Shown piece by piece: positions 18,541 to 35,017 of a stretch of DNA of 35,017 nucleotides. The DNA is taken from contig CAYFTD010000172.1 in the NCBI GenBank assembly GCA_964345915.1, forward strand, positions 1 to 35,017, given 5' to 3'. Made by a program: the position numbers and the translations under genes. The notes beneath the pieces were generated by a model. The model worked only from the letters and a program-made list of their open reading frames with translations. It was not told the DNA's origin and did no database searches. The DNA is from an uncultured archaeon. Its GTDB lineage: Archaea; Asgardarchaeota; Thorarchaeia; Thorarchaeales; Thorarchaeaceae. The first letter of the stretch is position 1. Every line of letters begins with the position of its first letter.

Positions 18541-19608
18541 TTGTTACCTGAGGAGAGGGGTCTCTTTAATTGTTGGCCTCGTATCTACATTCTTGTGAAG
18601 TCCTTAAGCTCTCAGCCTATTGAGGGTTACTTCGTTGTGACTGATGAGGCTCTTGTATTTGAAGTCAAGGGAGTTGTGCATCCTCGCGATCGATTGATTG
18701 CATATCTGAGGTATGTTCCTGATGACAAAGGAAATCGCCAGTCAAGAAATGGCAGAAGATTCAACAAGATATACAGGCTGAAGGATCGCGAACAGTACCT
18801 TCGTGACAGATACCCTGAGTTTCTGTGGTCAGATAGGAAACGTGGACGAGTGTTCCAGACTGTTCCAGTTGATTGTGTCGATTATGTCCTGAGTCCCATT
18901 GATGGACTGCGCCAACTTAGGGACCTTGGAGCACATCTGACTCATCTCGAAGAAGCGTCCTGTGTGCTTGCTCAGGCGTTTGTTGAACAGGCTTGCATCG
19001 ACTGGTCTGACCTTGGTCTCACTGGTTCTCAGCTCGCCGGTCTTAGTACCGCTGAATCTGATATCGACCTTGTTGTATATGGTTCAGACCCAGCCAGAAG
19101 ACTTCACTCTGTCTTGAAACACCACCTTGATCAATTCCCGGATGTCAGCCGATACAGAGATGAACGGCTTGAGAAACATGTGAAGTTTAGGTGGAAAGCC
19201 CTTGGAAGATGGAAGTCTGTATTACAAGTAATAGAATCTCAGAAGGCTTTCCAAGGCGTGTTTAGCTCCATTGATTTCTTTGTTAGAGCTGTGAAACTGC
19301 CAAGAGAGATTGGCCATCGCTATGAGGACCTCAGTATCAAAAGCGAGGGTATTCGAGAAACGAGGTGTTCGGTGATAGATGATTCTGACTCGATTTTCAC
19401 TCCGTGTATCTATCTTGTGCAATGTGATGAGTTGCCAGACATCAAAAGACTGGTCAGCTATCGTGGTCGTTTTGCAGAACATACCTCCAGAGGTTCTTTC
19501 GTCAGAGCAAGAGGTCGACTCGAAGTAGTTGACAACGATAGAAGTGGTGAAAGCTATCAACAGCTTGTTCTTGGAGAGAGTCCGGAAGATTATCTTCTAC
19601 CAATCTGA
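18541..19608 (+). CDS. Nucleotidyltransferase-domain protein (Pol-beta superfamily)
   Basis: GLTGSQLAGLSTAESDIDLVVYGSD is the G[SG]...DxD minimal NTase signature. The rest is unassigned. The start is uncertain (TTG 18541; a GTG ~18595 is possible). Confidence 0.6.
   Translation: MLPEERGLFNCWPRIYILVKSLSSQPIEGYFVVTDEALVFEVKGVVHPRDRLIAYLRYVPDDKGNRQSRNGRRFNKIYRLKDREQYLRDRYPEFLWSDRKRGRVFQTVPVDCVDYVLSPIDGLRQLRDLGAHLTHLEEASCVLAQAFVEQACIDWSDLGLTGSQLAGLSTAESDIDLVVYGSDPARRLHSVLKHHLDQFPDVSRYRDERLEKHVKFRWKALGRWKSVLQVIESQKAFQGVFSSIDFFVRAVKLPREIGHRYEDLSIKSEGIRETRCSVIDDSDSIFTPCIYLVQCDELPDIKRLVSYRGRFAEHTSRGSFVRARGRLEVVDNDRSGESYQQLVLGESPEDYLLPI
19218..19234. repeat. Bipartite GTAWTAC motif (TGTATTACAAGTAATAG)
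   Basis: Two inverted heptamers in 9-bp register, inside the NTase gene. Confidence 0.6.
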
Positions 19609-20756: not shown

Positions 20757-22082
20757 TCAATCCCCAGACAACAGAGTCACACTTTCTTCCAGTTTGATGT
20801 CTAGGTTCTCGAGCTCGTTGAGAATTGGTTCATAAAGCTCTGGCATTACTGGTCGCTGGACTCCTGTGAGAGTAATCGAACCGTCAAGAATCATCTTGCT
20901 TGCAATGGCTACAGGTAATGCGACCGTTCTGGACATTGAACTATCTCCATTGGGAATGCCATAGTCAATCATTGTCGAGGTGATCTTCTCCTTTCGGTCT
21001 GGGTACTCAGCAATGAACTCATGATGCATGACAATCATGTCTCTTTCGCCAGGAGCATATTGCAGTTTCTCTTCGAACAGATAACAGAGTACATCCAGAT
21101 ATGTATTGATACCGGAAGGAATGTTCTGAGTGCTGAATAGTCCAAGCCAATCAAGACGGGAGATTATCGGATTATCACTCTTGAGACCAATGACCTCGGA
21201 AACGGCCCCTGCAATTTCCAATTCCTTGGAGTCTACCAGTTCATACATCATATCAGCAAAGGTCATCCCATCAAAGCTGCGTTCGTTAAGTGACAAGAGG
21301 CCAAGATCGGCAATCTTTTTGAGTGTGCTACACCAGCCAAGATTCCTGAAAGTGCCTCGTAGCATAGTGTTCGTTTCAGGGATGGCGTATGTATCAATGA
21401 ATGACATGCTGTCACGATTGGGATATCCCTCGAACTTGCCCATTCCAGGAACCTCCATTATCTCATAGTTGTCGAAGAGCTCGGGTCCCGGAATCCTGAC
21501 TTCTTTCCCATCTCGAAGAAAGTGAGCATCATTTCGACCAGCGAGTAGAACTCCTCTGGGACTCCAGGACAACTTGTATCCAAATGGATTATCGTTGGCC
21601 TCTGGAGCAGGAAGGCCACCTGTAAAGGAGGTGAAGCTGTTTATCTTTCCGCCTTGATTGTGGACATGATCAATGATCTTCATGGCACTCATATGGTCAA
21701 TCCCAGGGTCCACGCCACACTCGTTCAAAATGAGAATCCCCGCTGTCTTGGCGGCCTCGTCTAGTCCTTGCATTTCCTCTGAGATGTATGATGTCGTGCA
21801 GAATGGTTTCCCATAGTTGATTGCCACTTTTGCGGCTTTGAAATGGTAGGTGGATGGGAGAATTGAACAGATCAAGTCAGACTCGGCTGTTAGTTTGTCA
21901 AGGAGACTGTCGTCAGTCTTGATATTGAAGACTGTAGCTTTAGCGTTCTTGCAGCCTGTGATGAGTCGATCTGCTTTGCTTTTCGTTCTGCTTGCAACTG
22001 TCACATGGAATCCATGGTCACTGAGATATTGTACATAAGGACGGGCCACCAGGCCTGCACCAAGACAGAGCACATTCTTCAT
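20757..22082 (-). CDS. Saccharopine dehydrogenase (LYS9 / AASS SDH-domain type)
   Basis: Rossmann N-terminus MKNVLCLGAGLVARPYVQYL. Full-length resemblance to the L-glutamate-forming SDH family (GVDPGIDHM, YKLSWSPRGVL). The start overlaps the stop of the upstream LKR gene (ATGA at 22079-22082). Confidence 0.85.
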   Translation of the reverse strand: MKNVLCLGAGLVARPYVQYLSDHGFHVTVASRTKSKADRLITGCKNAKATVFNIKTDDSLLDKLTAESDLICSILPSTYHFKAAKVAINYGKPFCTTSYISEEMQGLDEAAKTAGILILNECGVDPGIDHMSAMKIIDHVHNQGGKINSFTSFTGGLPAPEANDNPFGYKLSWSPRGVLLAGRNDAHFLRDGKEVRIPGPELFDNYEIMEVPGMGKFEGYPNRDSMSFIDTYAIPETNTMLRGTFRNLGWCSTLKKIADLGLLSLNERSFDGMTFADMMYELVDSKELEIAGAVSEVIGLKSDNPIISRLDWLGLFSTQNIPSGINTYLDVLCYLFEEKLQYAPGERDMIVMHHEFIAEYPDRKEKITSTMIDYGIPNGDSSMSRTVALPVAIASKMILDGSITLTGVQRPVMPELYEPILNELENLDIKLEESVTLLSGD

Positions 22083-23488: not shown

Positions 23489-23513
23489 TCAGTATTACTC
23501 GGTCTGAAAATGA

Positions 23514-23525
23514 GAACATGTGTTC
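23514..23525. promoter_or_regulatory. GAACAYGYGTTC box 1 (GAACATGTGTTC)
   Basis: Near-palindromic 12-mer followed by CAGTAATTGG, so GTTCCAGTAA resembles a mini-ORB. It is one of three related 12-mers in the 23.5-24.1 kb spacer. Confidence 0.4.
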
Positions 23526-23844: not shown

Positions 23845-23856
23845 GAACACGTGTTC
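23845..23856. promoter_or_regulatory. GAACAYGYGTTC box 2 (perfect palindrome GAACACGTGTTC)
   Basis: Perfect 12-bp palindrome 12 nt left of ORB copy B. Confidence 0.45.
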
Positions 23857-23868
23857 CAACACCCATGG

Positions 23869-23889
23869 ACCCCTTGGTTTCCAGTAGAA
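23869..23889 (-). promoter_or_regulatory. ORB-type origin recognition box (copy B)
   Basis: The reverse complement is TTCTACTGGAAACCAAGGGGT. It directly abuts the AT-rich stretch and is inverted relative to copy C. Confidence 0.6.
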
Positions 23890-24010
23890 AGTCAATTGAG
23901 TTATAATGCGATTAGAAATCAGAAAATATAAATAGGTGTTTATGAAGCTGTAGTATATCTCCATTTTAATTACTTATTATATAACTCGCTGAAAAAACTC
24001 CATAGATCAT
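23890..24010. other. AT-rich candidate duplex-unwinding element
   Basis: About 120 bp that is visibly far more AT-rich than its surroundings (aatcagaaaatataaataggtgtttatg...ccattttaattacttattatataac), bracketed by inverted ORB copies B and C. Confidence 0.55.
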
Positions 24011-24031
24011 CTCCACTGGAAATGAAGGGGT
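24011..24031 (+). promoter_or_regulatory. ORB-type origin recognition box (copy C)
   Basis: CTCCACTGGAAATGAAGGGGT on the + strand: same dyad plus G-string, facing copy B across the AT-rich stretch. Confidence 0.6.
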
Positions 24032-24070: not shown

Positions 24071-24082
24071 GAACACGCGTTC
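24071..24082. promoter_or_regulatory. GAACAYGYGTTC box 3 (GAACACGCGTTC)
   Basis: Third copy of the 12-mer, 39 nt right of ORB copy C. Confidence 0.4.
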
Positions 24083-24094: not shown

Positions 24095-24113
24095 ATAATA
24101 CTTGTAATACAAG
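24095..24113. repeat. Bipartite GTAWTAC motif (ATAATACTTGTAATACAAG), containing the perfect palindrome CTTGTAATACAAG
   Basis: Intergenic, 70 bp right of ORB copy C. The 13-bp perfect palindrome is at 24101-24113. Confidence 0.7.
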
Positions 24114-24229
24114 ACTTGGATAGCATACTTGGGAACTAAGTTTCATTATCTATTACCACAAGGTTGATACATGATACACTCTCCCCGTCGTTTCGTCCCA
24201 AAACCACTGGTTAATCGGAGGCTCAATAG

Positions 24230-26122
24230 TTGACCAGGCCAAAGGAATTACTTGAAGACAAAGTTGGCAAGAAGGCCCTACTTCTGGCAAATGAGGCAAT
24301 TGCTCGTGGAGTCCTTGAGGCTGGAGTTCGTCTTGTAGCATTATACCCTGGAACTCCAAGTAGTGAGATAGGAAACAATCTGACCTCAATGGCACCACAC
24401 ATATCCAACTTCTATTTCGAATTCAGTGCAAATGAGAAGGTTGCTTTGGAAGTGGCTGGAGCCGCTGCTGTGGCCGGTGTTAGATCTATGATGGTCTGCA
24501 AGGGGCCTGGTCTCAATGTGGCCGCAGACCCATTCTTTTCTCTAGCATATGTTGGCGTGCGTGCTGGAATGGTGATTGTAGTCGCCGATGATCCGAGTAT
24601 GTGGAGCTCTCAAAACGAGAATGACAGTAGATACTATGCACTGATGGGCAACATGCCAATGATTGAGCCAGCAGATCCTGCAGAAGCCAAGGCAATGTTG
24701 CTGGAGGCGTATGAGATATCGGAGGAATTGGAGCTACCCGTACTTTTCAGAACCACCACCCGTGTCAACCATACCAGAGCTCCAGTTGAGTTCAACAAAA
24801 TCAAAGAGAGGCCAAACACTATAGACTTTGTAAAGGAGCCCTTTCGTTTTGTCCCAATACCTTCCGTGGCAAGGAAACGTCATCCAATACTCTTGGAACT
24901 GATGAAGAGGGCGACTGAAATTTCAGAATCTACATCTCTCAACTTCACGCACGGACAAGGGGACCTTGGGATTATTACTAGCGGAGTTTCTTACAACTAT
25001 GTCCTTGAAGCACTCTCCACTATGAACCTTGAGGCAGAAGTTCTCAAGCTAGGTATGACGCATCCGGTTCCTGAGAAAACCATCATCGACTTTCTGAAGC
25101 GCCACAAGAAAGTTGTCGTGGTCGAAGAGCTTGAGCCTTTCCTGGAAACACACGCTCGACGAATAGCACAACTACGATCAATCCCCGTTGAGATTGTAGG
25201 GAAGGAACAGGACTACTTCTCTCGCGCATACGAATATAGTCCAAGGATTGTCATCGAGGCTCTTTCAAGGATTATGAATCGTAATACAAGTATTAACTGG
25301 AATGCTATTGACCAGAAGGTGAAGAAGCTCCCAGATCTTCCTCCGAGACCACCGTTGTTGTGTGCGGGATGTCCTCATCGAGCTACATATTATGCAATCA
25401 GGAGTGCTACGCGTGGCAAAGCCATATACCCCTCAGACATAGGGTGCTACACTCTAAGCATTTCACCACCACTAGAAACCGCAGATATCCTGTTTGACAT
25501 GGGCTCATCAATAACCACTGCTTGCGGCCTAGCACGTGTGACAAATCAAGATGTCGTGGCATCGATAGGTGATAGTACGTTCTTTGCATCTGGACTTCCA
25601 GGCATTGCAAATGCTGTCTACAATCGTCATCCAATCAGTCTGGTTGTCCTTGACAATCGTACTACTGCAATGACTGGCCATCAACCGCACCCTGGTACTG
25701 GAATCACCGGAATGCAAGAAGAGGTACCCCCTTTGGACATAGCAGAAGCATGTAGGGGTCTTGGCGTGGAGTATGTGATAGATGTAGATCCATTCGCACC
25801 TTTGGCAAATCTTGTTGCACAGGTTCGAGAGATGGTGACTTGGGTAAGGGAGAACGAAGCACCTGCAGTGATGGTGTCAAAGGCACCCTGTGCTCTTCTC
25901 ACAGCCGCTAATCGACGTAAGACCGGAGAGTATCCTCCAGACTACTATGTTGACGAGGAGCTATGCAATACATGCAAACGTTGTCTGAATCGTCTATCCT
26001 GTCCAGCGATGTATCTCGATTCTGAAACTGAGAAGGCCGTGATTGAAGAAACTCTTTGCAACCTTTGTGGTACCTGTACAGACGTATGTCCTCAAGGTGC
26101 AATCAAGCAAGAGGAGGTATGA
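24230..26122 (+). CDS. iorA: Indolepyruvate:ferredoxin oxidoreductase, alpha subunit
   Basis: 630 aa. NEAIARGVLEAGVRLVALYPGTPSSEI, TPP site GDSTFFASGLPG, and C-terminal ferredoxin-like Cys motifs (CNTCKRCLNRLSCP, CNLCGTCTDVCP). TTG start 8 nt after a GGAGG. Confidence 0.9.
   Translation: MTRPKELLEDKVGKKALLLANEAIARGVLEAGVRLVALYPGTPSSEIGNNLTSMAPHISNFYFEFSANEKVALEVAGAAAVAGVRSMMVCKGPGLNVAADPFFSLAYVGVRAGMVIVVADDPSMWSSQNENDSRYYALMGNMPMIEPADPAEAKAMLLEAYEISEELELPVLFRTTTRVNHTRAPVEFNKIKERPNTIDFVKEPFRFVPIPSVARKRHPILLELMKRATEISESTSLNFTHGQGDLGIITSGVSYNYVLEALSTMNLEAEVLKLGMTHPVPEKTIIDFLKRHKKVVVVEELEPFLETHARRIAQLRSIPVEIVGKEQDYFSRAYEYSPRIVIEALSRIMNRNTSINWNAIDQKVKKLPDLPPRPPLLCAGCPHRATYYAIRSATRGKAIYPSDIGCYTLSISPPLETADILFDMGSSITTACGLARVTNQDVVASIGDSTFFASGLPGIANAVYNRHPISLVVLDNRTTAMTGHQPHPGTGITGMQEEVPPLDIAEACRGLGVEYVIDVDPFAPLANLVAQVREMVTWVRENEAPAVMVSKAPCALLTAANRRKTGEYPPDYYVDEELCNTCKRCLNRLSCPAMYLDSETEKAVIEETLCNLCGTCTDVCPQGAIKQEEV
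25281..25296. repeat. Bipartite GTAWTAC motif (GTAATACAAGTATTAA)
   Basis: Inverted heptamers in 9-bp register, inside iorA. Confidence 0.6.
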
Positions 26123-26748
26123 CAGTGACTAGTAATAATAGTAATACAGTCAATGTGGCTATTGCTGGTGTTGGAGGCCAGGGCGTGTTGTCTCTTGCTG
26201 AGATATTAGCAAAGGCGGCCTTGGCTGACTCTCATAATGTCCGTGTGGGTGAGATTCACGGAATGGCCCAACGTGGGGGACATGTCGTCTGTACCGTCAG
26301 AATTGGAGATGGTGTACGAGGACCAATTGTGGATCCCGGTTCTGCCAACTTACTTGTTGGTTTTGAACCAATTGAAACACTACGTGAGATCCACTATGTG
26401 ATGGAGGACGGTTGCGTACTGATGAGCTCTCATGTTCAATATCCAGTAGCTGTTTCAATGGGCAACACGGAGTATCCAGCACATGAGAAGATCATTGCAG
26501 ATATGAGAAAATTCACGGATTGTATCCTAGAAATTAATGCAATGGAGCTCGCGAAAGAGGCCGGGAACGCTCTGTCCCTAAATATGGTAATGCTAGGCGG
26601 AGTTCTTGGAACCGGAGTGACACCAATAAAGAAGGATACAACCATTGAGGTGGTACGCACTACATTCTCCAAGAAGTATGAGTCCGTCAATCTCAAGGCC
26701 CTAGAACTTGGAATGTCGTCAGTTCAAGCATTGGCCAAGCATGCATAG
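26119..26748 (+). CDS. iorB: Indolepyruvate:ferredoxin oxidoreductase, beta subunit
   Basis: The ATG at 26119 overlaps the iorA stop (ATGA) and follows GAGGAGG. NVAIAGVGGQGVLSLAEILAKAAL and GEIHGMAQRGGHV are typical IorB / gamma-domain motifs. The tracked 26056 start would overlap iorA. Confidence 0.9.
   Translation: MTVTSNNSNTVNVAIAGVGGQGVLSLAEILAKAALADSHNVRVGEIHGMAQRGGHVVCTVRIGDGVRGPIVDPGSANLLVGFEPIETLREIHYVMEDGCVLMSSHVQYPVAVSMGNTEYPAHEKIIADMRKFTDCILEINAMELAKEAGNALSLNMVMLGGVLGTGVTPIKKDTTIEVVRTTFSKKYESVNLKALELGMSSVQALAKHA
26132..26148. repeat. Bipartite GTAWTAC motif (GTAATAATAGTAATACA)
   Basis: Direct heptamers in 9-bp register at the 5' end of iorB (codons SNNSNT). Confidence 0.55.
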
Positions 26749-26781
26749 TGGTTCTCATATGTGAAAGATGGGTCGGTATGA

Positions 26782-26800
26782 CTTGTATTACAATCATTAC
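26782..26800. repeat. Bipartite GTAWTAC motif (CTTGTATTACAATCATTAC)
   Basis: Intergenic, just after iorB. Confidence 0.65.
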
Positions 26801-26838
26801 ACGACCAAAAGCCAGGATCACAATGAAACTCGATCAGC

Positions 26839-27339
26839 TTGCAGTTGAAATGGCAAGACACTACAGACTTTGTTATTGTAGGACCTCATAAGCACAGAAG
26901 CCTCACCAACCTACGAACTGACTTGCATGTCCCAGATGAAGATACCCGGTCTATCCTGTTCGAACCTAAGTTGACTCCGTCCATACTCGCAAGTGTCCCT
27001 GGTTGTTTCAAGAAGACACTTATTGAATCAACTGAGAAATTAAGAAAGAAGCGGAAGTCAGTCCTAGTTTCCAGTAATAGTCTAGCCAACAGATTCATTC
27101 TAGAAAGGTGGGGGATCAGGCCATCACAACGCAAACGGTATCGGAATCTATTTGCAGACGTCCGGAAGCACTGTCGAGCTATCTTTCACCACTATCTTGC
27201 AAGAGGGAAGATTGAATGGACTGACAGCAAGAAGAGGCATGTGTTTGGTGTCTTCAAGTTTGACGAGATCCGAGGGAACCTAATCCTAGGATTTGTCTTG
27301 ATGCCACCAGAGGCAGAATGGAAGCTCCCACTTAGATAG
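26839..27339 (+). CDS. Hypothetical basic protein (doubtful ORF, no in-frame ATG near the 5' end)
   Basis: 166-codon ORF opened by TTG. Lys/Arg-rich (KLRKKRKS, RPSQRKRYR). No recognisable motif. It is the longest ORF in an 814-bp gap between iorB and the 27563 gene. Confidence 0.3.
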   Translation: MQLKWQDTTDFVIVGPHKHRSLTNLRTDLHVPDEDTRSILFEPKLTPSILASVPGCFKKTLIESTEKLRKKRKSVLVSSNSLANRFILERWGIRPSQRKRYRNLFADVRKHCRAIFHHYLARGKIEWTDSKKRHVFGVFKFDEIRGNLILGFVLMPPEAEWKLPLR

Positions 27340-27415
27340 CCTACCAACCTCTTTCTCTCCTCAGACTTGTTCTCTTGGTGTTTACCGGCGAGCATTTAAG
27401 CCAACCATCGCAATC

Positions 27416-27429
27416 ATTTGTATACAAAT
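27416..27429. promoter_or_regulatory. Perfect 14-bp palindrome ATTTGTATACAAAT
   Basis: It shares the TTGTA/TACAA arms of the CTTGTAWTACAAG motif but lacks the central base. It lies in the spacer upstream of the 27563 HTH gene. Confidence 0.4.
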
Positions 27430-27519
27430 CTGTATCCGCACAGTGCCCCATCAGATCAACAAAGAAAACAGTGCTCATAATCCCTTAAACACGCTTCACA
27501 AGGTTATGAAGCCATTTTC

Positions 27520-27535
27520 TGAAAGGCGCCTTTCA
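27520..27535. promoter_or_regulatory. Perfect 16-bp palindrome TGAAAGGCGCCTTTCA (candidate operator)
   Basis: It lies 27 nt upstream of the GTG at 27563 (39 nt upstream of the ATG at 27575). Confidence 0.4.
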
Positions 27536-27562
27536 ACCAAAGCGTGATACAGAAACCAGTCG

Positions 27563-28141
27563 GTGAATGATGCCATGAGTTCCAAGAAATCGGATCCGAA
27601 GAGAGATGGAGTTTCAATCAAGCAACTTGCCACCTCCACACGGCGAGTGTTGAAGGAGCCAATACTGAAGGCACTCCTCGATCAATCAGTACTAACCACG
27701 ACCCAGTTGGAAACCCTACTAATCGACTTGGTCGTGGAGGATGAGTATGGCAGCCACATCCCATACGATGACAAAGCCTCCTTTCGATCAAGGTCTGGAA
27801 GAAAGGCAACCGGCGTCACCCGCGGTGCTTTCAACAGAACACTGAAACAAGCACGAAGGAATGTTACTCGATGCTTCTACACGATGCTTCTTCTAGCATA
27901 CCTAGGCATGTTCGATCACACACTCTTTCGTCCTTTCGAAGAGGTTGCTACCAGAATCGGTGATTACCGGAGAGTACGTGACGTACTCTCAGGCAAAGCA
28001 GAGTTGTCAAAGGAAGAAATCGAGAGCTATCGTCTGGTCGAGGAAACGATACTGTCCGCACTAGAAGAGCTCAATGCGTCATCAGCCCTCAAGTCAGAGC
28101 TCTCGAGGCGTAAGGCAGTAACTACAGCCAGACAACGATGA
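27563..28141 (+). CDS. Hypothetical protein with a putative HTH (sigma-r4 / HTH_10-like) segment
   Basis: 192 aa (GTG 27563; ATG 27575 after an SD-like GGTGA). GRKATGVTRGAFNRTLKQARRNV resembles the ..G.S...v...l..A...l recognition-helix pattern. The C-terminal part is helical and acidic. Confidence 0.5.
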   Translation: MNDAMSSKKSDPKRDGVSIKQLATSTRRVLKEPILKALLDQSVLTTTQLETLLIDLVVEDEYGSHIPYDDKASFRSRSGRKATGVTRGAFNRTLKQARRNVTRCFYTMLLLAYLGMFDHTLFRPFEEVATRIGDYRRVRDVLSGKAELSKEEIESYRLVEETILSALEELNASSALKSELSRRKAVTTARQR

Positions 28142-28144
28142 AGT

Positions 28145-28160
28145 GTAATACAATTAATAC
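28145..28160. repeat. Bipartite GTAWTAC motif (GTAATACAATTAATAC)
   Basis: Intergenic, between the 27563 and 28206 genes, immediately upstream of the TATA-like box. Confidence 0.65.
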
Positions 28161-28162
28161 GC

Positions 28163-28178
28163 CAACCTTTTCATTAGG
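28163..28178 (+). promoter_or_regulatory. BRE/TATA-like element CAACCTTTTCATTAGG
   Basis: AACC-TTTT box ending 28 nt upstream of the GTG at 28206. Confidence 0.3.
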
Positions 28179-28205
28179 TATTGTCGAACTATCTGTTTTG
28201 ACTCG

Positions 28206-29447
28206 GTGGCTATCTTGACCAATGAGGACGACAAAAGGTGGTTCATGAGAGCGCTTAAGGACAAGGCAGCAGAATCCGAGAAAGAGCAGCAAATCAGTCA
28301 TCTTGCTGATGCAATCGGCGAACGAAGGGGTAGAGACCTGCTCGATGCCGTTGCTACAACAGAGCGTGATGAAGGATGGAATACCGCATTGCAATATCTG
28401 ATCAAGGCAGCGGAGGCCGATTACGTCACACCGGCAAGTTTCGGAAAAACACGTACAAGGATTGAGCCAATCAAGTACCGAGAGATGGTATTTGAGCTTC
28501 TTTCAGCTATCGGTCTGGAGCCTGTAGACTCCGATACAATCAATCTTCTCAAGAAACTGGAAGACGAAGACTCATTGGCCGAGGCCACACACTCTTTTGG
28601 TGCGCACGTCCAAAGACTGAGTCTACAGCAAATACAAAACGGTGATACTCTATTCTTTGATCTTCCAATGTCGAATGTTCAAGCGTTCGAGGAGCTAGAA
28701 ACTACCCTTGAATCCGCCAGGCTGGGAGAGATTGCCGGTCTTAGACTGATTCAAGATGGGAATGCAATTGATGTTACACCTCTTTGGTACTCAGAGTATG
28801 GCCGAAGGGCACTTTCGGAGTTGGGAGTCAAAGGAACACTACTGCCGACAGACCAGTTTGAAGTGGTATTATCAGTAATACAAGTATCACCACGCACCCG
28901 TGGCCAGATTCATATTCAAAGAGAGGAAGATGCCAGTCTAAAACACCCAGTTATCCCATCAAACTCATTGTATGCAAATCTGCTGAAGGCCATAATCAAT
29001 CAGGATCTGGACACCCTCTCTTCCCTTGCCAGTAAACACTCGTTCCCCGCCCTTAACGTCGTACTCGAGAACACAGTGACCCAGTATCATGAATCATCAT
29101 CGAGTGAGAACTACCGACTTGTACTTGAGTGTATGAAGAGCCATGTAGCAATTCGAAGCATTGACTCGATTATTGCACTCGAGAAGTTTGTAAGGCTTGA
29201 CGATCCCCGCATTGCAACACCAGCAATCAATGTTCTTGGAAATCTCTACAATGATTCTTCGGTTCTGACTCTTGCTGAAACTGTGTGCCGTGGCAAGAAG
29301 GAATGGATGATCCACCCTATACTGGATGCCCTAGAGAACATCTCCAAGAAGTGTCCTGAAACAATGCCTGCAATTGAAGGAATACTAGAATCTGATTGCA
29401 AGAATCGAACCATACTCAAACGTTTCCTAGGCAGAATCTCGAAGTAG
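28206..29447 (+). CDS. Hypothetical protein, C-terminal HEAT/ARM-like repeats
   Basis: 413-aa ORF with a GTG start. The C-terminal third has HEAT-like repeats (DDPRIATPAINVLGNLYN, HPILDALENISKKCPE). The N-terminal two-thirds are unassigned. Confidence 0.55.
   Translation: MAILTNEDDKRWFMRALKDKAAESEKEQQISHLADAIGERRGRDLLDAVATTERDEGWNTALQYLIKAAEADYVTPASFGKTRTRIEPIKYREMVFELLSAIGLEPVDSDTINLLKKLEDEDSLAEATHSFGAHVQRLSLQQIQNGDTLFFDLPMSNVQAFEELETTLESARLGEIAGLRLIQDGNAIDVTPLWYSEYGRRALSELGVKGTLLPTDQFEVVLSVIQVSPRTRGQIHIQREEDASLKHPVIPSNSLYANLLKAIINQDLDTLSSLASKHSFPALNVVLENTVTQYHESSSSENYRLVLECMKSHVAIRSIDSIIALEKFVRLDDPRIATPAINVLGNLYNDSSVLTLAETVCRGKKEWMIHPILDALENISKKCPETMPAIEGILESDCKNRTILKRFLGRISK
28865..28890. 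repeat. Triple GTAWTAC motif (GGTATTATCAGTAATACAAGTATCAC)
   Basis: Three alternating heptamers in 9-bp register inside the HEAT-like gene. It shares GGTATTAT-NN-GTAWTACA with the 30423 and 33443 copies. Confidence 0.65.
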
Positions 29448-29498
29448 GTTGATGGAATCACGGAGAATCTCGGCAGACATAAATCGACTGTAGGCCGC

Positions 29499-30896
29499 GT
29501 GAGGATTATGACGGACTCGCAAGTGGACAAGTTCCACGAGATTGATCTCTTTTTCAATCCTAAGCGAGTGGCACTAGTCGGAGCTTCTTCCGACCATCGA
29601 AAACTAGGCCATACAATTCTGACGAATCTCTTGGAGTCCGAGGTCGAAACTTATCCAGTGACACGAAGTGGGAACCAAATACTTGGAGCCAAGGCTTATC
29701 CAAGTCTAGCAGATCTTCCAAAGGCGGTCGATTTGGTCATAGTGGCAGTCGCAGCAAAACATTGTTCGAGTCTGATGGCCGAAGTCCAAAAGGCAGGAGC
29801 CAAAGCTGCGGTTGTCGTTTCAGGAGGGTTCAGTGAAATAGGCAGTGCTGGTTCAAAGCTTGAGGGAGAGCTTGTGAAGGCAGCAAAGAATGCTGGCGTC
29901 AGGATCATAGGACCGAATTGTGTTGGTGTTTCCAACACCAAACTCTTCAATGGAACCTTCACTATGATGCCTGAATCAGGCAATATTGCTCTCGTTTCTC
30001 AGAGCGGTGCATTGGGTGGAATGATCGTCTATGAAACTCGAGCGAAAGGGATTGGGATGAGCAAGTTCGCAAGTTTGGGAAACGCAGCCGATGTACAATT
30101 CTCTGAAATCATTGACTACCTGGGGGAGGATCCTGGGACGACTGTAGTTGCTGTGTACGTTGAAGGAGTGGACCACGGCAGGGCCTTTTTTGAGTCACTT
30201 CATGGAGCCGCACGCAAGAAACCAGTTGTCATACTGAAGGGCGGCAGAAGCGAACTCGGTGGAAGGGCCACATTGTCCCACACTGGATCTTTGGCTGGTT
30301 CAGTCGAAGTGTTCAATGGGATGATTCGGCAAGCACGCTGTGTTACTGTTCCTACTCTGAACAGCCTCCTTGAAGTGTGCAAACTCTTTGACTATCAACC
30401 ACTCCCCAAGGGACGTAATGTTGGTATTATTAGTAATACAGGCGGTGCAGGAGTTCTCGCCTCTGATGCCGCGTCTGATTATGGATTGACCGTCCCTATC
30501 CTTGACAAGAGTACTAGACAGGAATTAAACCAGATTCTTCCTGACATGGCATCAGTAAGTAATCCTGTAGATCTAGTTGCAAGTGGGGGCCGGAGAGAAT
30601 ACCGTGCGAGTACCGAGCTGCTGCTGAAGAATCCCAATATAGACATTCTGTTAGTCATATGTGCAGTTCCAACATTCGCTGGTATGACACTGACGGAGCA
30701 CGCTGAAGGAACTCTCGAAGGCATTCGGGACGCCTCTGAGAGAAAGCCTGTTGTTGGAGTATGGTTAGCCGCAGATGTAGGAGCACCTGGAAGGAACTTA
30801 CTCGAAACGAACAAAGTTCCATGCTATGATGATCCATCTCTGGCAGCACTGTGCATTTCCCGAGTTACGGAATACGCAGAGATGCAAATGAAATGA
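29499..30896 (+). CDS. acdA: Acetyl-CoA synthetase (ADP-forming) / acyl-CoA synthetase, alpha subunit
   Basis: CoA-binding N-terminus FFNPKRVALVGASSDHRKLGH, IGPNCVGV, LVSQSGALG, phosphohistidine-loop region SHTGSLAG and GIISNTGGAGVLASD. The likely ATG start is at 29508. Confidence 0.85.
   Translation: MRIMTDSQVDKFHEIDLFFNPKRVALVGASSDHRKLGHTILTNLLESEVETYPVTRSGNQILGAKAYPSLADLPKAVDLVIVAVAAKHCSSLMAEVQKAGAKAAVVVSGGFSEIGSAGSKLEGELVKAAKNAGVRIIGPNCVGVSNTKLFNGTFTMMPESGNIALVSQSGALGGMIVYETRAKGIGMSKFASLGNAADVQFSEIIDYLGEDPGTTVVAVYVEGVDHGRAFFESLHGAARKKPVVILKGGRSELGGRATLSHTGSLAGSVEVFNGMIRQARCVTVPTLNSLLEVCKLFDYQPLPKGRNVGIISNTGGAGVLASDAASDYGLTVPILDKSTRQELNQILPDMASVSNPVDLVASGGRREYRASTELLLKNPNIDILLVICAVPTFAGMTLTEHAEGTLEGIRDASERKPVVGVWLAADVGAPGRNLLETNKVPCYDDPSLAALCISRVTEYAEMQMK
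30423..30440. repeat. Bipartite GTAWTAC motif (GGTATTATTAGTAATACA)
   Basis: Inside the ACD alpha gene, across the codons for the conserved GIISNT. Confidence 0.6.
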
Positions 30897-30924
30897 CGAA
30901 TTTGCAGCAGAAGCATATCTCCTT

Positions 30925-30947
30925 GTATCATGTGTATTACAAGAAGT
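30925..30947. repeat. Bipartite GTAWTAC motif (GTATCATGTGTATTACAAGAAGT); left arm of a 15-bp inverted repeat
   Basis: It lies in the spacer between the convergent ACD and RHH genes. TGTATTACAAGAAGT (30933-30947) is the exact reverse complement of 32265-32279. Confidence 0.7.
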
Positions 30948-30973
30948 GAATGAGTTTGATTCGGTTGATGAGG

Positions 30974-31261
30974 CTACCCTTGTAGATGTCTGCTGGCTAT
31001 GTCCGGAAACTCTTCAGACAAAGCTTCCCGTAATCTCCGTTCAACCCACATACTCAGATTGATTGCCCTTTCATTTCTCACGTTTTGAAGACATGATCTA
31101 AGCTCTGTGGTGAACGAGAACGAAACAATTGGACTCTTTCGTTCTTTGTTAGGCACTGCTACGACAGACCTACTTCTTTCAGCGACTGTGGTTCTCTCCA
31201 TAGCTGTTGGTCTTGCATCTCTCTCTTCTTCGGAATCTCGATACTTCTTTAGAACACTCAA
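30974..31261 (-). CDS. Ribbon-helix-helix (CopG/Arc-like) small DNA-binding protein
   Basis: IVSFSFTTELRSCLQNVRNERAINLSMWVERRLREAL gives a beta-strand plus two helices in the RHH pattern. The TTG start at 31261 is 2 nt after the upstream AAA+ stop; the alternative Met (MERTT) gives 75 aa. Confidence 0.55.
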   Translation of the reverse strand: MSVLKKYRDSEEERDARPTAMERTTVAERSRSVVAVPNKERKSPIVSFSFTTELRSCLQNVRNERAINLSMWVERRLREALSEEFPDIASRHLQG

Positions 31262-31263
31262 AC

Positions 31264-32238
31264 CTAGCGCACCTCTCTAAGCAATTCAGCATATGCTTCT
31301 GATACTAGTTTGGCAGTTTCTCTGTCCACTTCTGGATCTCCGTTGCGTCTGAAACCCTCTGCGGCCACCTGTTGACATCCTCTTGCCAACATCCGGATGT
31401 CACGTGGGTTCCCCTTGGCCGCTTCATTGATGACCTCAATTGCAGCATCATCGAATGGGTAGATCTCAAAGCTACCAGGGTCAAAGCTGTCTATGCGTCC
31501 TTGAGCATAGTAGATTCTTCTCCCGATGAACTCCTTTGCTTTCTGATTATCAAACGGTGGGACATCCAAAGGCTCAGTCCTGTCTGCAATCTGTGGTAAA
31601 AACGAAAGCATGGCATTCCAGTAGATTGCGGTGCCAGACATTATCAAAGTGACAATCGGTTCATCGAGCACGTCCGGATAATCGGCTTTCATTTCTTGAG
31701 TTGGAAGATCAGCCAGATAACGCAGCTTGTGGAATGCCGTTTCCTGATTGTCTGCGACATCCTCAAGGAACAGTGCAGTGCGACAGTTCTCTTCGATATA
31801 CCTTCTCACAGATTCCTGAGCGACAGTCTCTATGATTTGACTGGACTCCCATGACCTTCGATACTTTATCCTCAAAGAGTCGGCAATGGCAGCCGACATC
31901 TGTTTCTCATAGAGTCCTGTCATGCCAACGTAACCAGTCACGAATTTGTTTCCTTTGCGATCAGCTAAGGTCGGCAGGTCTCTGAGAGCAAGCAACATCA
32001 GCGTACTCTTCCCAGATCCCACTGGGCCTCTAAGGAAGATATGCCGTTCATTAGTGAGAATCAGATCCACAAGGTGATCCAGGAATTCCGGCCATTCAAT
32101 GTAGAGTCGTGAGTCCGGCATCTTGTAACCACGAAAGGGAGAGAACCGAGCACCAATCCGCTCTTCCCAAGCCCGCAAAACTTCCTTGCGAGTGTTGAAG
32201 TGGCGGATCAACGCACTCTCATGAATCGCTATTGTCAT
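31264..32238 (-). CDS. AAA+ ATPase, Orc1/Cdc6-like (or ExeA/TniB-like AAA_22) module without a winged-helix domain
   Basis: Walker A FLRGPVGSGKSTL, Walker B ALFLEDVAD, sensor-1-like LIMSGT, PPF..QKAKEFIGRRI and a lid with GNPRDIRMLARGC (compare GDAR..L.LL of Cdc6). The protein ends ~40 aa after the lid. Confidence 0.7.
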   Translation of the reverse strand: MTIAIHESALIRHFNTRKEVLRAWEERIGARFSPFRGYKMPDSRLYIEWPEFLDHLVDLILTNERHIFLRGPVGSGKSTLMLLALRDLPTLADRKGNKFVTGYVGMTGLYEKQMSAAIADSLRIKYRRSWESSQIIETVAQESVRRYIEENCRTALFLEDVADNQETAFHKLRYLADLPTQEMKADYPDVLDEPIVTLIMSGTAIYWNAMLSFLPQIADRTEPLDVPPFDNQKAKEFIGRRIYYAQGRIDSFDPGSFEIYPFDDAAIEVINEAAKGNPRDIRMLARGCQQVAAEGFRRNGDPEVDRETAKLVSEAYAELLREVR

Positions 32239-32262
32239 GATGTGTACCCCACGGTATCACAT

Positions 32263-32280
32263 GTACTTCTTGTAATACAA
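32263..32280. repeat. Bipartite GTAWTAC motif (GTACTTCTTGTAATACAA); right arm of a 15-bp inverted repeat
   Basis: It lies 27-42 nt upstream of the AAA+ gene start (32238, minus strand). ACTTCTTGTAATACA is at 32265-32279. Confidence 0.7.
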
Positions 32281-32355
32281 TCCTCCGATGAGTCAGTGGC
32301 TAATAAGTAGTACGGTGAATCTTCCGGTGTCTACTCTTTTCACACCAACAAGACG

Positions 32356-32370
32356 TAACCTTTTTGAACA
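32356..32370 (+). promoter_or_regulatory. BRE/TATA-like element TAACCTTTTTGAACA
   Basis: Same AACC-TTTTT pattern, ~60 nt upstream of the ATG at 32431. Confidence 0.3.
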
Positions 32371-32430
32371 GAATGAAGCAGCGAGGGGGCTAGTCCGGAC
32401 ACGAACCGGTCAATACGAAAGGAGTAACTA

Positions 32431-32712
32431 ATGATGGACGTCGACCGAATCCGGCATGTACTGAACTCGTTGATGATACTGAGCTTCCTAGTCTTTGGAG
32501 CACTAGCTGCAACAATCTTGATTACCGATGCGCCACTGACGAGTTCGACAGTCGCTCTTCCTTTTGCCTTTCTATTCATCTCATTCATGACTCTTATCGT
32601 GACCGGACAAATCAACGACCGACCCAGACTCGTGAAGAGATACGTTCGAGATTGGCTCCTCATCTGTGCCCTTGCCATAATCATGAGTGCACTTGTAGTG
32701 ACTTTCACATGA
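32431..32712 (+). CDS. Small membrane protein (3 predicted TM helices)
   Basis: 93 aa. GGAG lies 8 nt upstream of ATGATG. Three clean hydrophobic helices. The overlapping minus-strand ORF (32340-32708) looks like a shadow. Confidence 0.5.
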   Translation: MMDVDRIRHVLNSLMILSFLVFGALAATILITDAPLTSSTVALPFAFLFISFMTLIVTGQINDRPRLVKRYVRDWLLICALAIIMSALVVTFT

Positions 32713-32797
32713 TGCCCATCACAAGAGTTTTAGGACATCAGTATGTGACACGGCTCAGCCTAGGAAATCCGTATTCACCTCTCTGAAGGGACTGCCA

Positions 32798-33430
32798 ATG
32801 AGTAAGATTCTGCCAGGAACCAAGACAACGCGGATGGAGCTTCTTCGATTGAAGAACAGAATGAGGCTGGCAGAGCGCGGTCACGATCTACTCAAGGAGA
32901 AACGTGACTCACTTATCATGGAGCTCTTCAACGTCCTTGCCGAGGTCAAGGACACTCGAGAGAAAGTTGAAACCGCTCTCTCAGAAGCCTTCTCCGCTCT
33001 CACAAAGACCAAGATGATAATGGGACCTTCCGAAGTTGTAGAGTTTGCCAATGCGAGCAGAGTTCAGGCTGACCTGAGAATCTCTACGCGTTCTATGATG
33101 GGCGTCTTGGTACCAGTCCTATCAGTTGAGCAATACGTACCAGAACTTCCATACTCCCTACCAGACTCCAGTGTGCAACTCGACGTCATGTCAACTAAAT
33201 TCAAAGAAGCATTGAAGGCGGTAGTACGCCTAGCCGAGATCGACTCAACAGTCAAGAGACTAGCTGTCGAAGTCGAACGTACTAAGAGACGCGTGTCAGC
33301 TCTTGAAACAATTGTAATTCCTCGACTTGATGCAACCGCAAGGTATGTGAAGCAAGCACTAGAAGAACGAGAGCGGGAGGACTTCTTCAGACTCAAATTC
33401 CTAAAGGAAAGAATGGAGTCCGAACAGTAA
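32798..33430 (+). CDS. atpD: A-type (V-type) ATP synthase subunit D
   Basis: PGTKTTRMELLRLKNRMRLAERGHDLLKEKRDSLIMEL and ...RRVSALETIVIPRL...ALEEREREDFFRLK form the canonical subunit D coiled-coil sequence. Confidence 0.9.
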   Translation: MSKILPGTKTTRMELLRLKNRMRLAERGHDLLKEKRDSLIMELFNVLAEVKDTREKVETALSEAFSALTKTKMIMGPSEVVEFANASRVQADLRISTRSMMGVLVPVLSVEQYVPELPYSLPDSSVQLDVMSTKFKEALKAVVRLAEIDSTVKRLAVEVERTKRRVSALETIVIPRLDATARYVKQALEEREREDFFRLKFLKERMESEQ

Positions 33431-33442
33431 TGCACAACTACT

Positions 33443-33460
33443 GGTATTATTTGTATTACA
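33443..33460. repeat. Bipartite GTAWTAC motif (GGTATTATTTGTATTACA)
   Basis: It fills most of the 30-bp spacer between the convergent atpD and nac genes. Confidence 0.65.
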
Positions 33461-33938: not shown

Positions 33939-34766
33939 TCAAGACTGAACGACCTTGATGTCAAGGACAGAATGCCGAATGCTAGGCGCATACCATTTGA
34001 TGCCGCGTATGGAGATGTCTGAGATGAAGCCCCTACTAGAACAAATGTCTTCAACATCTCGTATCAACTTGTCCAATTCCTTGTCAGGCAAAGCAATATG
34101 CATGTGAATCATCCCGCCTTCGGGCACTAACGCTTCCAATGCATGAGGAAGAAAATGATGCGTATCATGCAGATATCCCATGACGACCCTATTCACACCA
34201 TGAATGGGATGAACCACTCGACAATCACCATGAATGGCTTCAACCAAGTCATCAAGATCATTCAGTCGAATGTTGGTAACGAGGAACTTGTATGCTTCCG
34301 GATTCAACTCAATCGCCTTGACTCTTACTTGCCTATTCTTCGCCATTGGTAAAGCAAATTGACCGACACAAGCAAACATGTCGAGAACACACTCTCCAGA
34401 CTGGACTATGGATGCCATGCGTTCCCTCTCTCCTCTATTGCCACCAGAGAAAGTGATGCGTGTTGGATCAAGTCTGAACTTGACTCCGTTCTCAACGTGT
34501 GTTGTGACTGTGTCACTATCACCGGCTACCAGAGTGTAATCTGGTATCCGCATGACTCCAGACGTTGCACCGGTACGCACTGCAACCGAATCGATTCTTC
34601 CGTCATACTTGAGAGTGGCCTCTCCGAGCAAGGGCAAATATGGGTGCAGACCGAAATCAACATGTAGTAGGGCAACATGTCCTACGAGATGATATCCGCT
34701 AGGGAGAGGTATGCCTGAGGGGACTTGGTCTTTGAGGCTAGTTCTAAGGAACTCTCTGTACTTCAT
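33939..34766 (-). CDS. Trm5/Taw2 (Met-10+) family tRNA modification enzyme
   Basis: GHVALLHV, SAM site VLDMFACVGQFALPMA, AIELNPEAYKFLVTNIRLN and HGDCR. The Trm5 NLP motif position reads MGYL, which I associate with the Taw2/TYW2 branch (memory-based). Confidence 0.8.
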   Translation of the reverse strand: MKYREFLRTSLKDQVPSGIPLPSGYHLVGHVALLHVDFGLHPYLPLLGEATLKYDGRIDSVAVRTGATSGVMRIPDYTLVAGDSDTVTTHVENGVKFRLDPTRITFSGGNRGERERMASIVQSGECVLDMFACVGQFALPMAKNRQVRVKAIELNPEAYKFLVTNIRLNDLDDLVEAIHGDCRVVHPIHGVNRVVMGYLHDTHHFLPHALEALVPEGGMIHMHIALPDKELDKLIRDVEDICSSRGFISDISIRGIKWYAPSIRHSVLDIKVVQS

Positions 34767-34813
34767 GAGGACTCACAGAAAGCAGTGATTGACTACAATC
34801 AGGGTACAACGTA

Positions 34814-35017
34814 TCAGCAATACAAAGTGCTCGGAGCGCCATCACCCTTACCTCGACTCTGAATCTTTGCTATTCCCTTGCTAAAGTCTTCCTGAATTAC
34901 ACAGACTCTACTTTCGCGGATAGCAAACATACCGGCTTCGGTGCAGATTATCTTGATGTCAGCACCCGTCAGATTTGCCGTGGCAGATACCAGTCTATCA
35001 AAATCAAGTTCGGTATG
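34814..35017 (-). CDS. pan: Proteasome-activating nucleotidase, 3' fragment (gene runs off the window)
   Basis: Not in the ORF track. The reverse-strand translation from 35017 gives HTELDFDRLVSATANLTGADIKIICTEAGMFAIRESRVCVIQEDFSKGIAKIQSRGKGDGAPSTLYC*, the conserved AAA lid / C-terminus of PAN/Rpt. The stop is at 34814-34816. Confidence 0.85.
   Translation of the reverse strand, partial: HTELDFDRLVSATANLTGADIKIICTEAGMFAIRESRVCVIQEDFSKGIAKIQSRGKGDGAPSTLYC

Follow-up and report, generated by a model that had tools for sequence, protein, structure and literature searches.

Asgard archaea are the closest prokaryotic relatives of eukaryotes, and to our knowledge nothing is known experimentally about chromosome organization, replication or segregation in this group. 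Among described DNA segregation systems, type Ib partition is exemplified by ParF-ParG/parH of TP228 and delta-omega of pSM19035; its centromeres are built of short repeats (4-bp boxes, 7-bp heptads) in direct or inverted orientation, which are bound cooperatively, overlap the operon promoter and autoregulate the operon. In the SegAB system, SegB is a ribbon-helix-helix (RHH) protein whose unstructured N-terminus activates SegA (PMC8682754). SegB binds a 13-bp palindrome located just upstream of segA, and within 50 kb of sequence surrounding segAB and oriC1 it gave 16 peaks, of which 84% are intragenic (10.1101/2025.02.07.637068; PMC8682754). The archaeal pNOB8 partition machine (AspA, ParB, ParA) has three components that work jointly: a small separate protein for site-specific DNA binding, an adaptor and an NTPase (PMC8682754). 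Here we analyzed a 35,017-bp stretch of DNA from an archaeon of the Thorarchaeaceae (contig CAYFTD010000172.1), which is one entire NCBI contig and is called the window below. It carries an array of palindromic GTAWTAC sites that starts at a predicted replication origin. The array has defined boundaries, is conserved among related genomes and co-occurs with a two-gene operon for an AAA+ ATPase and a small RHH protein.

The locus resembles SegAB of the Sulfolobales in several respects. Both have an operon in which an NTPase gene is followed by a small RHH gene, and in both the RHH protein combines an N-terminal tail with a C-terminal DNA-binding domain. Palindromic sites are located right upstream of the NTPase gene, with more of them clustered around the operon and near the origin (predicted here). 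SegAB sites are mostly intragenic; here four out of ten window sites are.

The 8-mer GTAATACA/TGTATTAC occurs 13 times in the window, compared with a mean of 0.50 and a maximum of 3 in dinucleotide shuffles (n = 100). It is the top over-represented word among all 7- and 8-mers when judged against order-2 and order-3 Markov models (13 versus 0.6-0.85 expected); a maximal-order Markov test gave no information, since the enrichment of the motif extends to its own sub-words. Ten of the 13 copies fall within 24,104-33,459, and the binomial probability of such clustering is 2e-4. An earlier note on this DNA had listed 13 copies, ten of them at 24.1-33.5 kb, and all coordinates match our recount. Its second heptad 9 bp away from 11 of the 13 copies was also recovered when up to two mismatches were allowed, the exceptions being the copies at 3593 and 3765. 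The same was true for the three heptads reported at one site (28866-28890), for three copies of a longer form, GGTATTAT-NN-GTAWTACA, and for six spacers with a site, two of them between convergent genes. The 13-bp palindrome that had been placed near an origin recognition box (ORB), at 24101-24113, is CTTGTAATACAAG, located 69 bp from the inverted ORB at 24012-24030.

Analysis of 166 sites from 13 genomes identified a partner heptad (up to two mismatches) at exactly +/-9 bp in 83% of cases, and in 3% or fewer at nearly every other offset. The symmetrized logo of these sites reads gtaNtaN-tT-GTAWTAC-Aa-NtaNtac. A complete site spans 16-25 bp and consists of two, sometimes three, individually palindromic GTAWTAC heptads in a 9-bp centre-to-centre register; judging from RHH and other dimeric repressor systems, such a layout would be expected if small dimers bind cooperatively. 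A position weight matrix trained on other genomes only recovered the same ten window sites and no hidden weak ones. Several explanations of the motif were considered and rejected, namely ORB or mini-ORB identity, a restriction-modification or methylation site, and a remnant of a miniature inverted-repeat transposable element or insertion sequence. An RNA-level element was rejected in view of the palindromic character of the sites, their occurrence in both orientations and their presence in convergent spacers, and Rfam returned nothing. A genome-wide word of the DNA-uptake (DUS/USS), Chi or KOPS type was rejected on the 10- to 30-fold density drop at both array edges in many genomes. No description of the element was found in the literature searched for the motif string, for Asgard origins and segregation and for AAA+/RHH partition systems.

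To compare the locus with its relatives, related loci were gathered with atpD as an anchor in a genome collection and then with iorA in a metagenome scan, which yielded 41 further Thorarchaeota contigs; the resulting Thorarchaeota set comprises about 45 loci and consists of metagenome-assembled genomes (MAGs) only. Identity to the window in atpD is 99% for the closest relatives and 96% for the 2.58-Mb Thorarchaeota chromosome CP070658.1; three indel-ridden metagenome contigs from the same organism (L001, L082, L083) added nothing. Searches for contigs that encode the window proteins 33939-34766 and 2923-3312 returned none, probably owing to different start codons. Gene order within the array is kept across Thorarchaeota: iorA-iorB-(hypF)-166aa-192aa-413aa-acs-RHH-AAA-93aa-atpD-nac-trm5, where acs is the gene for the alpha subunit of ADP-forming acetyl-CoA synthetase and unnamed genes are given by the length of their products. 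In the window the array is 10.7 kb long, with roughly one site per kb, and runs rightwards from the locus of the ORB pair and its putative duplex unwinding element (DUE) to the spacer upstream of trm5; where relatives have hypF in addition, it measures ~13.5-14 kb.

The boundaries of the array are sharp. All Thorarchaeota loci, which range in GC content from 40% to 53%, hold 7-17 copies of the 8-mer per 20 kb, and 56 atpD loci from outside this group hold eight copies in 837 kb (0.01 per kb). In the left flank, from -10 to -1 kb relative to the iorA start, density is 0.03-0.05 per kb (~210 kb from 24 related contigs). It rises to 1.5 per kb in the last kb before iorA, which is the ORB/DUE region, and amounts to ~0.4-1.9 per kb over the next 12 kb rightwards, the array overall having ~0.9-1 per kb. 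From ~2-3 kb past the atpD start (the PAN-trm5 spacer) the density is ~0.1 per kb, and loci reaching 34 kb left of the origin contain one copy in ~63 kb of non-redundant sequence. These outside densities describe the flanks of array loci. The earlier note had proposed to compare densities outside and inside the cluster; flanks being 10- to 30-fold sparser, the two are not alike in any flank sampled.

The array begins at an origin-like core (23870..24030), in which an ORB on the plus strand (23870-23889) and an inverted ORB (24012-24030) enclose an AT-rich putative DUE (~23900-24000). Such an ORB pair around an AT-rich stretch is classical origin anatomy (PMC4010727). Most related contigs have ORB-like matches at ~-140 to -390 bp relative to iorA, and the array begins at the ORB-DUE-ORB locus in all Thorarchaeota contigs examined. 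Two of the ORB-like repeats (CCCCTTGGTTTCCAGTRGAA) of the window are on the plus strand, starting at 19769 and 23870, and one is inverted, at 24012. The first of them (19769-19788) is a third copy 4.1 kb left of the pair and upstream of a 212-aa gene; genes for saccharopine-dehydrogenase-like and AlaDH/PNT-like proteins stand between the ORB copies (20105-23488). Both are missing from L025, a locus of a Thorarchaeota sister lineage, where the 212-aa gene adjoins orf107. The ORBs are flanked by another palindrome, GAACAYGYGTTC (consensus GAACACGTGTTC), at 23514-23525, 23845-23856 and 24071-24082; it is often found within ~25 bp of origin-region GTAWTAC sites, several copies are present in the same region of other Thorarchaeota contigs, and a further origin-binding factor may recognize it.

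Individual sites are kept at orthologous positions. At the left edge, beyond the ORB pair, the window has a single GTATTAC heptad (23492..23498), to which the site has been reduced here; most Thorarchaeota contigs carry a canonical site -700 to -811 bp from the iorA start. Site 1 (24095..24113, ATAATAC-TT-GTAATAC-AAG) includes the 13-bp palindrome and stands between the origin and the start of iorA, 122 bp ahead of the latter, with counterparts ~-105 to -144 bp from iorA in many related contigs. Site 2 (25281..25296, GTAATAC-AA-GTATTAA) lies inside iorA at codon ~352; with hardly an exception, metagenomic Thorarchaeota contigs that cover the position have a counterpart there, +1051 bp from the iorA start (+1036 in L101). 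Site 3 (26132..26148, GTAATAA-TA-GTAATAC-A) occupies iorB codons 5-10 at the iorA/iorB junction and is kept in most Thorarchaeota loci. Site 4 (26776..26800) has three heptads, GTATGAC-TT-GTATTAC-AA-TCATTAC, in the iorB/166-aa gene spacer, and site 5 (28145..28160, GTAATAC-AA-TTAATAC) falls in the spacer that separates the 192-aa gene from the 413-aa gene. Site 6 (28866..28890), again with three heptads (GTATTAT-CA-GTAATAC-AA-GTATCAC), is inside the 413-aa gene at codon ~224, and site 7 (30424..30440, GTATTAT-TA-GTAATAC-A) covers acs codons 309-314. The spacer of the convergent acs and RHH genes contains site 8 (30925..30941, GTATCAT-GT-GTATTAC-A), the counterpart of which is found at acs+36 to +49 in most Thorarchaeota loci.

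Site 9 (32263..32279, GTACTTC-TT-GTAATAC-A) has its centre 37 bp ahead of the start codon of the ATPase gene, in a divergent spacer shared with the 93-aa gene. A counterpart is present 33-55 bp upstream of the ATPase gene in every Thorarchaeota locus that includes this gene, and site 9 is presumed to be an autoregulatory or anchor site. The 93-aa gene (32431-32712, plus strand), just upstream of atpD, encodes a small hydrophobic membrane protein; a 122-aa minus-strand open reading frame (ORF) at 32340-32708 is probably spurious, as gene calls of the related chromosome place a 92-93-aa plus-strand gene there. Site 10 (33444..33460, GTATTAT-TT-GTATTAC-A) fills the 30-bp spacer of the convergent atpD and nac genes; it is present in most Thorarchaeota loci and absent from the 56 atpD loci from outside the group. 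The right-edge site upstream of trm5 (34811..34827) is degenerate in the window, GTATCAG-CA-ATACAAAG, and canonical in other Thorarchaeota genomes; beyond it the density profile falls. Outside the array, a copy at 19218..19234 inside a gene for a 355-aa nucleotidyltransferase-domain protein is not conserved in related contigs. Two further copies, at 3593-3600 and 3765-3772, are single heptads without a partner, 172 bp apart in a 309-aa gene. Orthologous regions of four contigs (L123-L126) hold 0, 1, 0 and 0 copies per 21 kb, showing that these two are not conserved, and they are probably not part of the system.

Across Thorarchaeota, orthologous positions comprise ~-760 and ~-126 bp around the ORB pair, iorA codon 352, iorB codon 9, 413-aa gene codon 224 and acs codon 313, as well as the spacers upstream of the 166-aa, 192-aa and 413-aa genes, acs and trm5 and the convergent acs/RHH and atpD/nac spacers. 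Sites at hypF codons 166 and 517 were present in all 15 Thorarchaeota genomes examined. The intragenic copies show strong constraint at synonymous positions. In acs the site reads GGT ATT ATT AGT AAT ACA in Thorarchaeota orthologues and third-position changes are rare (codon entropies 0, 0.5, 1.05, 0, 0 and 0.31, against a gene mean of 1.43); for Gly codons just downstream of it, all four synonymous codons are in use. In the 413-aa gene a block of ~25 nt (GTATTATCAGTAATACAAGTATCAC) is almost invariant in 13 out of 14 genomes, with a codon entropy of 0.44 at the site versus 1.40 elsewhere; the encoded protein is 31-49% identical in more distant genomes. Conservation in orthologues, which the earlier note had named as a check on its intragenic copies, was thus found at orthologous codons with synonymous-site constraint in acs, the 413-aa gene, iorB and hypF. 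Synonymous positions frozen within the motif indicate selection on the DNA itself.

The two-gene operon inside the array lies on the minus strand. Its first gene (31264..32238) encodes the 324-aa AAA+ ATPase, with the Walker A sequence GPVGSGKST and 76-97% identity across Thorarchaeota. Its distribution is narrow: a word-indexed search gave 136 matches, and an exhaustive HMMER search found 25 representatives among 1.84 billion sequences; no relatives were found in viral contigs. Pfam and NCBIfam scans of the sequence yielded weak AAA_22/ExeA matches only (TIGR02928 E = 0.077), and ten relatives that were scanned are AAA_22/ExeA/TniB-like without a confident Cdc6 signature, one having a faint ORC-CDC6-like match below the cut-off. 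The top Foldseek matches of its AlphaFold model are archaeal Orc1/Cdc6 proteins and eukaryotic subunits of the origin recognition complex (ORC), among them 1w5t, 2qby and 2v1u (E 2e-9 to 1e-7, template-modelling score ~0.5), and the fold is predicted from this model to be Orc1/Cdc6-like. The mean predicted local distance difference test (pLDDT) score of the model is 69; the putative initiator-specific motif falls in residues 105-130, which score below 50. There was no match to WHD_Cdc6 or Cdc6_lid, and 324 aa are too short to include a winged-helix domain (WHD).

The second gene (30974..31261, minus strand) encodes the 95-aa RHH protein, which is the best candidate for binding the sites. Its N-terminal peptide (MSLLGKYRKEEE in relatives) and its C-terminal strand-helix-helix domain are both conserved, and the linker that joins them is variable and disordered; residues 12-32 form the disordered stretch in the AF2 model (pLDDT 65). 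This layout of conserved peptide, linker and DNA-binding domain matches SegB and ParG-type centromere-binding proteins (PMC8682754, PMC12139799). Pfam scans of the Thorarchaeota 95-aa family gave spurious weak matches and no family, and Foldseek gave no matches with the small monomer model. Sequence searches of the PDB with the ATPase and the RHH protein produced nothing useful, and PADLOC (defence systems) and PHROGs no meaningful matches. The assignment to RHH proteins follows from transitive homology: a homologue in a distant lineage, described below, passes the gathering score of Pfam RHH_1.

This homologue is encoded in L128, a locus from MAGs labeled Heimdallarchaeota/Gerdarchaeota (GC 32%), which was found by the exhaustive search and contains a full-length relative of the ATPase (42% identity). 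There the ATPase gene is followed by a 110-aa gene, the product of which starts with MSLLQKYRKEE, is homologous to the Thorarchaeota 95-aa protein over its full length (hhalign probability 98.4%, E 7e-15) and scores 23.2 bits with RHH_1 (cut-off 20.5). The 21-kb locus has ten copies of the 8-mer, compared with 0.8 expected, all within 4.3 kb; none are present in the other 16.6 kb. One copy is 27 bp upstream of the ATPase gene, one is between the two genes, two are in hypF, and six further copies are in an AT-rich non-coding stretch of ~950 bp just downstream of the operon. The 9-bp heptad register is kept, and iorAB, acs and atpD are absent from the locus. L025 was found to have only three sites, one marking the origin edge, one preceding the ATPase gene by 85 bp and one ahead of trm5. 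Together these two loci indicate that the motif follows the operon across a deep divergence, and that the promoter-proximal site is the most constant one. Since L128 sites surround the operon where no ORB is present, the primary link of the motif is with the operon and not with the origin. The view in the earlier note of a cluster beside an origin is therefore borne out in all Thorarchaeota contigs examined and does not extend to L128.

It was also observed that hypF has intragenic sites in both lineages (L128 positions 13331 and 14276; in Thorarchaeota, for example, L093 position 14016). One L128 site, at HypF residue ~288, coincides with a site position in some Thorarchaeota genomes, which may reflect ancient conservation or a common peptide. 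A further relative of the ATPase, 298 aa long, is encoded in an apparent integrated element of a contig labeled Bathyarchaeota (L131, JAPUUM010000027.1, ~2300-5100), next to a tRNA gene, a D5-type primase (D5_N) and a KaiC-like AAA_25 ATPase. An uncalled small RHH-like ORF is directly upstream of it, and no GTAWTAC motif was found in this contig. Its context hints at a derivation of the ATPase-RHH module from mobile elements.

An array that is kept inside genes and travels with an RHH protein and an ORC-like ATPase looks like a centromere-like chromosome-organizing system. A SegAB-like array of this kind, centromere-like or chromosome-organizing and bound by the RHH protein with its AAA+ partner, is the explanation we favor, and we give it about an even chance of being correct. 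The GTAWTAC sites would be the recognition site of a sequence-specific DNA-binding protein, most likely the 95-aa RHH protein encoded in the array. One RHH dimer would bind each heptad, with cooperativity between neighboring dimers as in other RHH proteins, and the conserved N-terminal peptide would engage the AAA+ ATPase. Binding at the site 37 bp upstream of the operon could lead to autoregulation. NTPase, RHH site-binder and repeated sites would then form a module in the style of SegAB or type Ib partition, which may build an origin-proximal nucleoprotein domain for chromosome organization or segregation. We infer the identity of the binder, what the ATPase does and a cellular function as centromere or nucleoid organizer from the arrangement and conservation of the sites and genes.

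Of the three binders proposed in the earlier note, the RHH protein gained support from its transitive RHH homology, the fixed site upstream of its operon and the way the motif follows the operon to a distant lineage. The winged helix-turn-helix protein (20105-20743) lies outside the array and found no support. The helix-turn-helix (HTH) candidate, a 192-aa HTH-like protein (27563..28141, plus strand; GVTRGAFNRTLKQARRNV), proved to be conserved inside the array and beside the sites in both lineages and ranks as an alternative binder or third component; its homologue borders the L128 site cluster and has a weak DUF134 match.

A number of observations weigh against the favored explanation. The ATPase does not have the deviant Walker motif of ParA/SegA type, and we know of no AAA+ partition motor. 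Profile and single-sequence searches of all PDB chains (assumed to include those of SegB) detected neither SegB nor any other RHH chain at E <= 10, and nothing was obtained when the Thorarchaeota RHH family was compared by hhalign with CopG and ParG sequences. Structure models are of modest confidence (pLDDT 65 for the RHH protein, 69 for the ATPase). Conservation next to the sites is just as good in both lineages for the 192-aa HTH-like protein, which may itself be the binder, or a third component. Several sites are 30-150 bp upstream of genes, a position also compatible with transcriptional control, and clusters may exist elsewhere in Thorarchaeota genomes. The origin at 23870..24030 is predicted only from its ORB/DUE anatomy; canonical Cdc6 (398 aa, with Cdc6_lid and WHD_Cdc6) is encoded ~24 kb to the left of it in relatives, and no ORB was found in the L128 array.

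An alternative explanation, which we consider rather unlikely, is replication control. The RHH protein would bring a WHD-less Orc1/Cdc6-like ATPase to sites spreading from the origin, where the two could act as an auxiliary initiator or loader, as a licensing or sequestration device, or as a titration sink. Known examples with which such a sink can be compared are bacterial datA and SeqA/GATC clusters. The structural model of the ATPase is in line with this, matching archaeal Orc1/Cdc6 and eukaryotic ORC subunits best, while the sequence is AAA_22/ExeA/TniB-like and not Orc1/Cdc6 (TIGR02928, as above). Also in favor is that the ATPase has no room for a WHD, whereas canonical Thorarchaeota Cdc6 has both Cdc6_lid and WHD_Cdc6. 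The array begins exactly at the ORB/DUE locus in Thorarchaeota, but it is one-sided, and the L128 sites gather at the operon, where neither an ORB nor an obvious DUE pair is present. Origins are compact, unlike ~12 sites at ~1-kb spacing over 11-14 kb. Gene neighborhoods favoring replication are the D5-type primase that adjoins the Bathyarchaeota ATPase homologue in its integrated element, and a wider island of replication genes with Cdc6, RFC-S, RFC-L, MCM and Hel308. In L123-L126 this island falls in the 10 kb immediately to the left of the window start and encodes a Hel308-like helicase, MCM and the small and large RFC subunits together with TruA, an ArsR-type HTH protein and the canonical Orc1/Cdc6. 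Its position puts the predicted ORB/DUE origin ~24 kb from cdc6 and not adjacent to it; no ORB-like match was seen beside cdc6 in these contigs.

Two side observations concern the left part of the window. A cluster of a TFB-like gene, a FlaI/T2SSE-type ATPase gene and a small 63-70-aa gene is found both in the window (4489-7568) and in L128 (5945-8985), being linked to cdc6 and the ATPase-RHH neighborhood in Thorarchaeota and in the Heimdallarchaeota-labeled lineage. At 7716-7773 on the plus strand there is a marginal partial Rfam tRNA match (30.7 bits, gathering score 29, model positions 10-63); ARAGORN called no tRNA there, and it may be a tRNA fragment or a chance match.

Local transcription control is a further explanation, and in our judgment an improbable one. 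Here the sites would be operators of an autoregulated repressor or activator, either the RHH protein or the 192-aa HTH protein, by which the neighboring genes would be expressed in concert, and intragenic copies would serve as roadblocks or looping sites. RHH proteins are typically repressors, and 4 out of 10 window sites are 37-122 bp upstream of starts (iorA, the 166-aa gene, the 413-aa gene and the ATPase operon); relatives have sites upstream of the 192-aa gene (p192), acs and trm5 as well. Another four of the ten are intragenic, however, and two lie between convergent genes, all of them conserved with codon-level constraint. iorAB and acs are metabolically linked, but the genes covered as a whole (iorAB, hypF, acs, atpD, nac, trm5) are functionally unrelated, and in L128 the sites surround the operon and hypF in a locus without iorAB, acs and atpD. 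Roughly even spacing of one site per kb and sharp edges are not regulon-like. A different element, TGTATACA-N4-5-TGTATCC, is located upstream of the 192-aa gene (27417-27437, TTTGTATACAAATCTGTATCC). The earlier note had taken part of it (27417-27430) for a spacer-less variant, ATTTGTATACAAAT, of the GTAWTAC site. It is conserved across Thorarchaeota genomes and coexists in other genomes with canonical GTAWTAC sites; TGTA/TACA half-sites are common to both, the central base being absent from this element. A similar GTATAC/GATAC pair precedes the homologous 192-aa-type gene in L128. The element is not a decayed copy of the motif and is probably a separate operator.

That the array is a compositional artefact, produced by k-mer or codon bias, conserved peptides or chance, has practically no probability and is excluded by the flank densities and synonymous-site tests: the acs site does overlap a conserved peptide (GIISNTGG), but flanks of the same genomes are 10- to 30-fold sparser, synonymous positions are frozen only inside the motif, sites also occur in non-coding spacers and in the 413-aa protein gene, despite 31-49% protein identity in more distant genomes, and enrichment persists from GC 32% to 53%.

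Whichever function it has, the array supplies Asgard chromosome biology with a defined, strongly selected cis-element (a 16-25-bp site repeated ~12 times) and two or three small candidate trans-factors. These can be made recombinantly, so that experiments in vitro and with heterologous hosts can address the question directly. In Thorarchaeota MAGs the array serves as a marker of the predicted origin region as well, and this is useful for genome finishing and for coverage-based estimates of growth rate. If the AAA+ partner does act as a motor or organizer, the repertoire of DNA-segregation NTPases would expand, and the locus would provide a prokaryotic example of an ORC-like protein that builds a sequence-defined chromatin domain beside an origin.

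Returning to the centromere-like or chromosome-organizing array that we favor, its differences from the described systems are as clear as its likeness to SegAB. SegA has the ParA-family deviant Walker A (KGGxGK[ST]), whereas the ATPase found here is an AAA+ protein with a classical P-loop. The SegB motif is TCTAGA-S-TCTAGA, in contrast to GTAWTAC heptads with a 9-bp period; the present array is denser (one site per kb), one-sided and sharply bounded; and its RHH protein has no detectable sequence similarity to SegB. In its anatomy the locus fits type Ib partition, in which a small RHH protein with a flexible N-terminal tail binds the short repeated units of the centromere; binding is predicted in our case. 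The compact L128 cassette at 9,950-12,300, with sites upstream of and within the operon and a ~1-kb block downstream, is very similar to type Ib cassettes. Type Ib systems differ in having a partner ATPase of ParA Walker type, and their centromeres are packed into ~100-200 bp, unlike the Thorarchaeota sites, which are distributed over 11-14 kb including coding sequence. Bacterial ParB-parS likewise has palindromic sites near oriC, often intragenic and extending over a few to tens of kb, at which an origin-proximal nucleoprotein complex is nucleated; the 16-bp parS is unrelated to the GTAWTAC motif, and Pfam scans detected no ParB (HTH/CTPase) or ParA domains in the array proteins scanned, the 93-aa and trm5-side neighbors adding none. 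To archaeal Orc1/Cdc6 and ORB the locus is related by an ATPase model that superposes best on Orc1/Cdc6 and by an array that abuts ORB repeats; it differs in that the ATPase has neither a winged helix nor a significant family match and the motif is not ORB. The pNOB8 machine offers an analogy only: our locus, too, has three proteins, which are conserved beside the sites, namely the ATPase, the RHH protein and the 192-aa HTH-like protein, and no homology to its AspA, ParB or ParA was detected. With an AAA+ ATPase, an unrelated RHH sequence and a different motif, the system is outside the SegAB, type Ib and ParABS families. That an ORC/Cdc6-like AAA+ ATPase, in place of a ParA, actin-like or tubulin-like NTPase, and an RHH adaptor operate on an origin-proximal centromere-like array as an unrecognized partition or organization machine of Asgard archaea, in Thorarchaeota and one or more lineages labeled Heimdallarchaeota, which would be a fourth class of segregation NTPase, is a tentative proposal that we regard as possible though doubtful. 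The array itself resembles the known origin-proximal arrays for proteins of centromere-binding type, and there is a realistic chance that its AAA+ partner makes it a new class.

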